A stretch of 64,000 nucleotides of DNA, taken from Planctomycetota bacterium. Lineage in GTDB: Bacteria; Planctomycetota; UBA1135; UBA2386. The position numbers were made by a program, and so were the translations under genes. A model generated the notes under the pieces. That model worked only from the letters and a program-made list of their open reading frames with translations. It was not told the origin of the DNA and did not search any database. Of the stretch, positions 10,365 to 11,531 are shown piece after piece (position 1 is the first letter of the stretch; each line of letters starts with the position of its first letter). The stretch covers positions 2,528,001-2,592,000 of the forward strand of contig OZ245838.1 in the NCBI GenBank assembly GCA_965228735.1, given 5' to 3'.

Positions 10365-11531
10365 ATGCGTCGACCGCCCAGTCGTCTCGTTCCGTTCGCT
10401 CTCCTGTTGGCCGCCACGTTGCCGACCTGCCGGTCGGGCCCTGCGCTCGGCGGGTCGACCATGCCGATGGTCAACGCCGCCGGCCCCGGCAGCGAGTGGC
10501 AGTGCAGCCCGCGGCTGGAGCTGTCGAGCGTGTGGACGTTCCTCGCGCGCAAGTACGACAGCGACGGCGACGAGGTCGTCACGGCGGCCGAGTACGACCG
10601 CGGCGAGACGCGGTTCATCAACTACGACCGCACGGGCGACGGCCAGCTCACGGCGGCGGATTTCCCGCCGGACACGTACTTCAACGGGTTCAGCCACTAC
10701 CTCGTCCGCCAGGCGGATGCCGACGAGGACGAGACGATCACCCGGGCGGAGTGGGACGCGTTCGCCGCGCGGCTCGACGCCGACGGCAGTGGCGTCATCA
10801 CGCCGGACGAGGCCAAGCGGGCGATGGGCGAATGGGCCGACGACTGGCCGCTGTTCCTGCTGTCGTTCGACCAGGACCAGGACGGCGACTTCGACGCGTT
10901 CGACCTCGACGTCACGTTCCGCGATCAGGACTACGACGGCGACGGGGCGCTGACGGGCAAGGAGACGGCCGGCTGGGCCGCGACCGCGGAACGCCCGGAT
11001 ACGCCGCCGCCCGCCGTCGGCGAAGCGGCGCCGGCGATCGACCTGATGTTCGCGGACGGCAGCGGCGCGTTCCGGCTCGCGGACGCGATCCGCGAGCAGC
11101 CCGTCGCGCTCGTGTTCGGCAGCTACACTTGACCGCCGTTTCGCGAGTCGGCCGGTCGGCTGAACGAGCTGCACGCGGCCTGGGGTGACAAGGTCCGCTT
11201 CGTCGTGGTCTACGTGCGCGAGGCCCACGCGATGGACTCGCGACTGCCGATGGGCTTCGGCGCGATCGAGGACCCGACGACGATCATCGAGCGCACCGAG
11301 GTCGCGAAGATGTGCACGCAGACCCTTGGCCTGTCGATCCCGACCGTCGTCGACGACATGGACGACGCCGTCTCGCGCGCCTACCACGGCTGGCCCGAAC
11401 GGCTCTACCTGATCGACCAGGCCGGCAACGTCGCGTATCGCGGCGGCCCGGGCCCGTTCGGCTTCGACCCCGACGGCTTCGAGACGGCGATCCGCGCGCA
11501 CCTCGAAGGCGCGCCCACCGGCACCCGCTGA
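10365..11531 (+). CDS. Putative selenoprotein: EF-hand repeats plus iodothyronine deiodinase-like domain (UGA 11130-11132 = Sec256; 388 aa)
   Basis: In-frame FGSYT-TGA-PPF followed by VYVREAH and YHGWPERLYLID (deiodinase family motifs); several DxDxDG EF-hand loops; N-terminal signal; downstream hairpin. Confidence 0.88.
11133..11168 (+). promoter_or_regulatory. Bacterial SECIS-like hairpin
   Basis: TCGGCC(11148-53)/GGCTGA(11158-63) stem, GGTC apical loop 21 nt after UGA, lower TTCG/CGAG pairing. Confidence 0.7.

Follow-up and report, generated by a model that had tools for sequence, protein, structure and literature searches.

A deiodinase-like EF-hand protein with a predicted selenocysteine and a bacterial SECIS-type hairpin in a Planctomycetota genome

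The locus and its closest described relatives

Deiodinase-like selenoproteins of bacteria were described in 2005 (PMC1088965) and are included in a 2026 review (PMC13188914). A fusion of EF-hands with a deiodinase-like selenoprotein was reported from the GOS survey in 2021 (PMC9402790, Fig. 2B), where an extra conserved Cys was noted. With the deiodinase-like type (2005) and the EF-hand fusion (2021) both in print, the locus described here is an ordinary further member of a published family. It lies in the window, a stretch of 64,000 nucleotides (contig OZ245838.1, assembly GCA_965228735.1) from a Planctomycetota genome of 7.19 Mb and 69% GC. The GOS fusion, as described, has the same two-domain architecture (PMC9402790), and beyond it the present analysis describes a likely signal peptide with an atypical lipobox, covariation of the SECIS hairpin, a Cys in helix alphaD with its substitution pattern and a motif around C47. 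The prokaryotic selenoproteins of PF00837 belong to the same family and share the pairing of Sec and Cys forms and a bacterial SECIS directly past the UGA, but the window protein differs in having six EF-hands and a predicted export signal as well. The motif UxxC given in the review (PMC13188914) differs from SYTUPPF of the window protein, which has no Cys at +3. The NCBIfam model NF038285 (deiodinase_rel) matches both halves of the protein (E 4.6e-63) but stays below its cut-off, with 213.8 bits against 250, whereas a Cys-form protein with GNFTCGPF reaches 474.7 bits and stands in another branch.

The animal deiodinases Dio1-3 (4TR3/4TR4, 9H48) share with the window protein the fold, FGSxTUPPF and the equivalents of Tyr197/Glu200/His202, Arg225 and Gly276-Pro277. 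In contrast to them, the window protein has no proximal Cys168, distal Cys239, His219, Trp207 or Arg275, carries a Cys in alphaD instead, and has an EF-hand domain and a signal peptide where the animal enzymes have a membrane anchor. Calredoxin of Chlamydomonas (5E37) is likewise a fusion of EF-hands to a redox domain of thioredoxin fold, and the EF part of the window protein matches it weakly in fold (Z 5.7, rmsd 10.3), but four EF-hands, a CxxC thioredoxin, a chloroplast location and a proven Ca2+ dependence are calredoxin's own (PMC4911631). Poplar GPX5, E. coli Tpx and BCP/PrxQ, all atypical 2-Cys peroxidases, share the Prx-like fold and have their resolving Cys in the helix that corresponds to alphaD, but they are without the omega-loop insertion and their sequence similarity is very weak (E 0.03 or worse).

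The number of EF-hand loops in homologs of the window protein ranges from none to six; the N-terminal domain of one homolog is of a different kind, and in one the EF-hands follow the catalytic domain. The database protein P0075 starts just past the Sec site and bears C-terminal EF-hands, a reversed domain order. Several metagenome loci (L086, L111, L115, L138-L142) have GSCTU or GSCSU, a CxU motif like that of animal Dio1/Dio3, and most of them are without EAH. Weak relatives such as L038 (GSYTUPPF, YQREPH) make up a distant TGA-containing group (E 1e-12 to 1e-18) present in many genomes of the same family, a separate deiodinase-related selenoprotein subfamily.

Under the plain code the gene is split into ORFs at 10296-11132 and 11205-11531, and the products of gene callers are an N-half with the end FGSYT and a C-fragment of 108 aa; the database copy (P0004) stops at FGSYT. 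The single internal in-frame TGA of the 388-codon frame (11130-11132) falls within FGSYT-U-PPF, the final TGA is at 11529-11531, and the same frame holds YVREAH (residues 283-288) and YHGWPERLY (340-348). The initial annotation had reported FGSYT-TGA-PPF, VYVREAH and YHGWPERLY in one frame, and all three are present where it had placed them. Almost certainly, as far as sequence can tell, the two frames are one gene in which the UGA is decoded as selenocysteine. GC3 amounts to 0.94 before as well as after the TGA; in the 24 codons that lead from it to the next GTG the value is 0.88. Contigs from three of four public sequencing runs cover the whole stretch without a difference, and those of the fourth, a coral metagenome, cover 11080-11230, including the TGA, and are identical; as this DNA may itself stem from near-identical runs, the comparison is an assembly check and no measure of spread. 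Because the run contigs agree across the TGA, an assembly error at this codon is ruled out. Organohalogens are common in coral settings, a point in favour of the dehalogenase reading given below. The features of the locus and its neighbours are collected in Table 1.

Table 1. Positions of the features of the locus and of neighbouring genes in the window
Feature	Position	Strand	Basis
Whole CDS, 388 aa with U256	10365..11531	+	One frame when the TGA is read as Sec
Likely signal peptide M1-C22, probably of lipoprotein type, atypical lipobox LPTC	10365..10430	+	Homolog alignment
Subfamily motif W-x-C47-x-x-R50-x-E-L-S	10497..10529	+	Conservation in close N-halves
Six EF-hand-type loops in three close pairs, residues 65-76, 88-99, 118-129, 138-149, 169-180, 189-200	10557..10964	+	Loop pattern and Pfam
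Deiodinase-like domain of thioredoxin/peroxiredoxin fold, residues 218-372	11016..11480	+	PF00837; Dio3 sequence and fold matches
UGA within the frame; predicted selenocysteine U256, which aligns with Dio3 Sec170	11130..11132	+	TGA in 130/131 distinct homolog loci
Upper hairpin of the bacterial SECIS, 21 nt past the UGA, with a GGUC loop on a 6-bp stem	11148..11163	+	Comparative covariation and model constraints
YVREAH, start of omega loop; Y283, E286, H288 = Dio3 Tyr197, Glu200, His202	11211..11228	+	81/81; 4tr3 alignment
C317 in helix alphaD (307-321), candidate resolving cysteine	11313..11315	+	74/81; helix from model
Neighbour sulfatase, ends 50 nt upstream	8830..10314	+	PF00884, E 2e-38
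Neighbour second sulfatase, divergent, start approximate	7018..8760	-	PF00884, E 8.2e-61
Neighbour CxxC-CxxC zinc finger, membrane segment and TlpA/ResA-like WCGPC thioredoxin in one frame	11899..12807	+	Motifs in one frame

Catalytic domain and possible chemistry

The kinship with deiodinases proposed in the initial annotation held in the PF00837 match and in sequence, Foldseek and VIA comparisons, in each of which Dio3 was best. PF00837 (T4_deiodinase), the model suggested there as a check, matches the read-through product across the UGA (E 5.7e-22, 78.6 bits against a gathering cut-off of 27). Dio3 (4tr3) is the best sequence match (E 1.1e-16) and also the best Foldseek hit of the predicted fold, an AlphaFold model from 85 sequences with pLDDT 90.3 and pTM 0.85. 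In the VIA fold comparison Dio3 reached Z 19.0 (rmsd 2.7, 170 aligned) and was tied with AhpE (Z 18.3) and Bcp1 (Z 18.1). A family profile matched Dio3 with E 1e-39 and Dio2 with E 5e-37, and the next match followed at 4e-6. The Redoxin HMM stayed below threshold (21.5 bits against 26.6), and the AhpC-TSA HMM gave no match on the read-through protein.

Conservation in the active site was read from 81 catalytic domains, namely that of the window and 80 of 120 extracted. T255, Y283, E286, H288, D330, R346 and P364 are each present in all 81, and all of them except D330 were mapped to Dio3, as Thr169, Tyr197, Glu200, His202, Arg260 and Pro277. The omega loop with Y-x-x-E-A-H is described as specific to deiodinases (PMC11592359), and the variants Thr125Ala of DIO1 and Glu200Thr, Tyr197Phe and Thr169Ala of Dio3 are inactive (PMC9141512, PMC7506546). 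The role of the invariant Tyr/Glu/His may be limited to anchoring the loop (PMC7506546). Other Dio3 residues are replaced in the window protein, Trp207 by R293, Arg275 by P362, His219 by P304, the proximal Cys168 by Y254 and Cys239 by I325. Pro stands at the His219 position in 75 of the 81 bacterial domains; DIO1 His174Ala keeps its activity (PMC9141512, PMC7506546), so the change from His219 to Pro need not abolish activity in the bacterial proteins.

C317 aligns with Dio3 Leu232, not with Cys239. It is present in 74 of the 81 domains, and each of the other seven (L036, L037, L039, L070, L071, L080, L011) has a substitute Cys, which is shifted by one or three residues, lies in the omega loop or is found at position 360 beside the pocket. 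In poplar GPX5 and E. coli Tpx the resolving Cys is located in the helix equivalent to alphaD (PMC7506546). We infer from the aligned sequences that a second thiol is required, which would resolve the oxidised Sec.

The best reading of these sequences, although a tentative one, is that the protein may be a dehalogenase that acts reductively on small iodinated or brominated aromatics outside the cytoplasm. It is the likeliest because invariance is found in those residues by which deiodinases differ from peroxiredoxins and variation in those specific for thyronine, and because debromination of PBDEs is reported for fish deiodinases (PMC7144113). With fold and export as predictions, the substrate class, the role of C317, the reductant and the role of Ca2+ may be inferred as follows. 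The selenolate of U256 would take the halonium from an aryl iodide or bromide bound beneath the omega loop, and T255/E286, held by Y283 and H288, would donate the proton. C317 of helix alphaD would then resolve the Se-X intermediate to a selenenyl-sulfide, which a periplasmic thioredoxin-type reductant could reset. The EF-hands, loaded with Ca2+ outside the cytoplasm, would serve mainly as a stabilising or docking module and not as a switch. Against a dehalogenase stand the loss of Trp207, Arg275, His219 and Cys168, all of which except the proximal Cys168 are proposed for thyronine recognition, and the tie of Dio3 with the peroxiredoxins AhpE and Bcp1 when fold alone is compared. The location of C317 at the resolving-Cys site of GPx5 and Tpx peroxidases and the possibly mere anchoring role of Tyr/Glu/His (PMC7506546) count against it as well. 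No halogen-metabolism gene recurred among the 75 neighbours scanned, and no assay of any bacterial deiodinase-like member was found in the open-licence literature.

An only slightly less favoured possibility is an extracytoplasmic thiol-dependent peroxidase or oxidoreductase in the style of the atypical 2-Cys PrxQ, Tpx and GPx, in which U256 would reduce a hydroperoxide or hypohalous acid, C317 would resolve it and the omega loop would do no more than shape the pocket. That C317 lies in alphaD, where poplar GPX5 and E. coli Tpx have their resolving Cys, agrees with such a peroxidase, as do the fold matches of AhpE, BCP and Tpx that are tied with Dio3, the TlpA-like thioredoxin encoded downstream, and the occurrence of the family in 71 of 201 genomes of the phylum, which suits a general redox job. 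However, the affinity in sequence to deiodinases exceeds that to any Prx by more than 30 orders of magnitude, the AhpC-TSA and Redoxin models give no match and a score below cut-off, respectively, and the invariant Y-x-x-E-A-H loop is of the deiodinase-specific kind (PMC11592359). The Pro of the Prx motif is absent as well. This motif is PxxxTxxC. "Redox or dehalogenating", as the initial annotation had put it, remains the right pair of options, between which sequence cannot decide.

N-terminal part and neighbouring genes

The N-terminal leader consists of a basic stretch followed by a hydrophobic one, with C22 as its last residue. A hydrophobic stretch was present in 50 of 56 N-termini, and the signal peptide and export claimed in the initial annotation are upheld as predictions; the protein is very probably exported. 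The lipobox regex was matched by 37 of the 56 N-termini. LPTC of the window fails it, but its Cys aligns with the lipobox Cys of the homologs, and Cys occupies the C22 column in 28 of the 36 close N-halves; the protein is probably lipid-anchored. In the same 36 N-halves C47 is present in 35 and R50 in all.

EF-hand loops of 12 residues begin at D65, D88, D118, D138, D169 and D189, with ligands at 1, 3, 5 and 12, in keeping with the about six DxDxDG-type loops counted before, and PF00036, PF13405 and PF13499 score over cut-off on this region. In the model the region has pLDDT > 90, and the exit helix is missing after loop 1 and short after loops 2 and 6. A fold search with the EF domain alone gave partial matches to EF-hand pairs, the best with Z 7.7 and TM 0.24. 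Two named families were rejected. Lanmodulin has Pro at position 2 of its EF loops; no loop here has it, and NF053806 did not match P0003 at E 0.01. The NCBIfam match to XopAW is weak (27.6 bits against a cut-off of 120) and caused by the EF loops.

Possible regulation by Ca2+ was part of the initial annotation and is unsupported, as homologs have between 0 and 6 loops on the same catalytic domain. A sensor-responder like calredoxin, in which Ca2+ or another cation on the EF-hands would switch the Sec domain, fits either chemistry and is rather unlikely. It could draw on the good ligand patterns of the six loops, on the pTM of 0.85 of the two-domain model, which suggests a fixed interface, on conserved motifs of the EF domain outside the loops (C47, R50, N107-G108-F109) and on the precedent of the algal calredoxin (PMC4911631). 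Against it, the number of loops varies while the catalytic residues stay the same, and EF-fused forms occur in several places of a quick tree of 111 domains with low support (51 of 108 branches open). An exported protein would, moreover, meet mM Ca2+ and hence presumably be saturated.

The protein was described as standing next to two sulfatases. Both are real by PF00884, but a functional link is not supported, as among 91 homolog loci, a good many of them short, 3 have matches to the sulfatases of the window. Membership in a sulfatase operon, for example to handle halogenated aryl products of the sulfatases or to keep them reduced, is very unlikely. The same-strand sulfatase does end 50 nt upstream, and a homolog of the same genus (L148) likewise adjoins a sulfatase; yet that sulfatase lies downstream, is convergent and is 29-37% identical, and the genome has 33 PF00884 matches, or about 31 sulfatase genes. 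A scan of 8600-12000 for promoters and terminators found no promoter-like site and one terminator-like site at chance level. The product of 11899-12807 is a possible extracytoplasmic reductant; this downstream thioredoxin had no match in the 91 homolog loci, many of them short. Pfam searches of 75 of the 122 called neighbours from 12 loci revealed no shared pathway. Elsewhere in the window, an Asp/Asn beta-hydroxylase-like cupin (4862-5554, +) and a radical SAM gene (5542-6987, -) lie just upstream of the sulfatases, and two further, ordinary features are an APH-like kinase/AAA_33 fusion (12843-14432, -) and, at 14813-17817 (+), a histidine kinase accompanied by a sigma-54 response regulator.

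Selenocysteine decoding, the hairpin past the UGA and the family

The absence of selABCD had been named in the initial annotation as a ground for dropping the selenoprotein claim; selA, selB and selD over cut-offs and a tRNA-Sec(TCA) are all encoded in the genome. At G000:C1:121367-123694 selA is followed by selD, which has its own in-frame TGA in an SGSG-U motif and a hairpin unlike the GGTC type. The selenoprotein claim is upheld by this machinery, by the PF00837 match across the UGA, by Cys counterparts and by TGA at the same site in homologs. A protein search gave 176 matches; among the 120 listed, 62 end exactly at FGSYT, one of which is the window's own half, and 45 have Cys at the site of U256, 22 of these with EF loops. 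In a profile search with the N-half, 96 of the best 150 cluster representatives end at GSxT. Of 131 distinct homolog loci, 130 have TGA and one has TGC at the position of U256, a count that leaves out duplicates, loci of sel genes, L008, L047 and L148-L159 and comes from a retrieval biased to best hits and Sec-type queries. No Cys read-through form of the C47 subfamily was present among the homolog proteins collected. In one deiodinase-like homolog (L065, in G184) a TAG follows six codons past the TGA, which points to a broken gene or an assembly error.

Among 61 genomes of relatives, 40 match the protein and 60 have selA. Across the phylum, most of the 71 genomes with PF00837 have one TGA. 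selA is present in all three TGA-form genomes checked and is over cut-off in neither of the two genomes with a stop-free form (G164 and G126, both 99% complete), of which G164 alone had its TGC codon inspected. A single-protein search of the genome contigs gave one weak locus. The genome also encodes a paralog (G000:C1:2173946-2174908; L007:958-2034), an EF-hand deiodinase-like protein of 43-46% identity whose gene shares both the in-frame TGA and the GGTC hairpin. This paralog has a non-lipoprotein leader and is preceded by ruvA and a reverse-transcriptase gene.

A stem-loop with a GGTC apex 21 nt past the UGA had been noted, which is exact, and its reading as a SECIS is supported comparatively. 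The hairpin is TCGGCC-GGTC-GGCTGA (stem 11148-11153/11158-11163, loop 11154-11157). The SECIS loop of E. coli fdhF contains GGUC. The bSECIS model has a loop of 3-9 nt with G in its two opening positions, a stem of 4-16 bp, a distance of 16-37 nt from the UGA and an MFE of -7.5 or lower (PMC13188914); the window hairpin lies within each range, with the 4-nt GGUC, 6 bp, 21 nt and -9.0 to -12.4 kcal/mol. Taken alone, it was not significantly more stable than shuffles (z -1.39 to +0.86), in longer folds of the window a competing hairpin wins, and an Rfam scan of 10900-11600 gave no SECIS family and two chance matches.

The comparative evidence comes from 56 EF-type Sec genes chosen for their EF loops, not for the hairpin. 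In 47 of them the loop is GGTC, and the Gly codon of the loop is GGT in 47 of 51 cases, whereas in the remainder of these genes GGT makes up 232 of 1575 Gly codons. Forty-three genes close the stem with C-G, 11 with U-A and 2 with another pair, and U-A changes Arg to Gln or similar. Hairpin cells are paired in 94.9%, and covariation is 0.402 against 0.201 +/- 0.016 in shuffled alignments, although the sequences are related and the substitutions are not independent events. All slid-register controls were far lower, two of five covariation measures, both counts, did not rise above shuffles (83/500 and 106/500), and an alignment of 29 rows gave the same picture. The same register is found in 3 of 74 non-EF Sec loci, many of which, by eye, apparently have a shifted 5-nt loop. 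A genome-wide scan for UGA with a GGTC hairpin gave 153 raw matches; among the 12 listed after filters, only the two deiodinase-like genes seemed convincing. That the UGA is a true stop, leaving a secreted EF-hand protein and a separate short ORF or a pseudogene, would agree with the unremarkable stability of the lone hairpin and the missing Rfam match but is next to impossible in view of the conserved helix alpha1 encoded by the 24 codons that follow the UGA up to the next GTG, the TGA at the same site in 130 of 131 loci, the Cys counterparts, the complete Sec machinery and the covariation of the hairpin.

The locus adds to the published family a covarying GGUC SECIS, a Cys in alphaD with compensating substitutes and the C47 subfamily motif. 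As callers cut the genes at the Sec codon (in at least 62 homologs, and in 96 of the best 150 representatives), a common family is stored as EF-hand fragments. It is conceivable, though doubtful, that exported EF-hand selenoproteins are widespread metal-free and cobalamin-independent reductive dehalogenases that remove iodine or bromine from natural aromatics at the cell surface, recycled by the alphaD Cys as in GPx/Tpx peroxidases, with a chemistry ancestral to the deiodinase chemistry of animals and possibly gated by Ca2+. The window protein is a soluble, exportable relative of the animal deiodinases with a clear candidate resolving Cys. It gives access to two questions, what role the deiodinase-like proteins have in bacteria and by what route peroxiredoxin-like enzymes gave rise to deiodinase chemistry.
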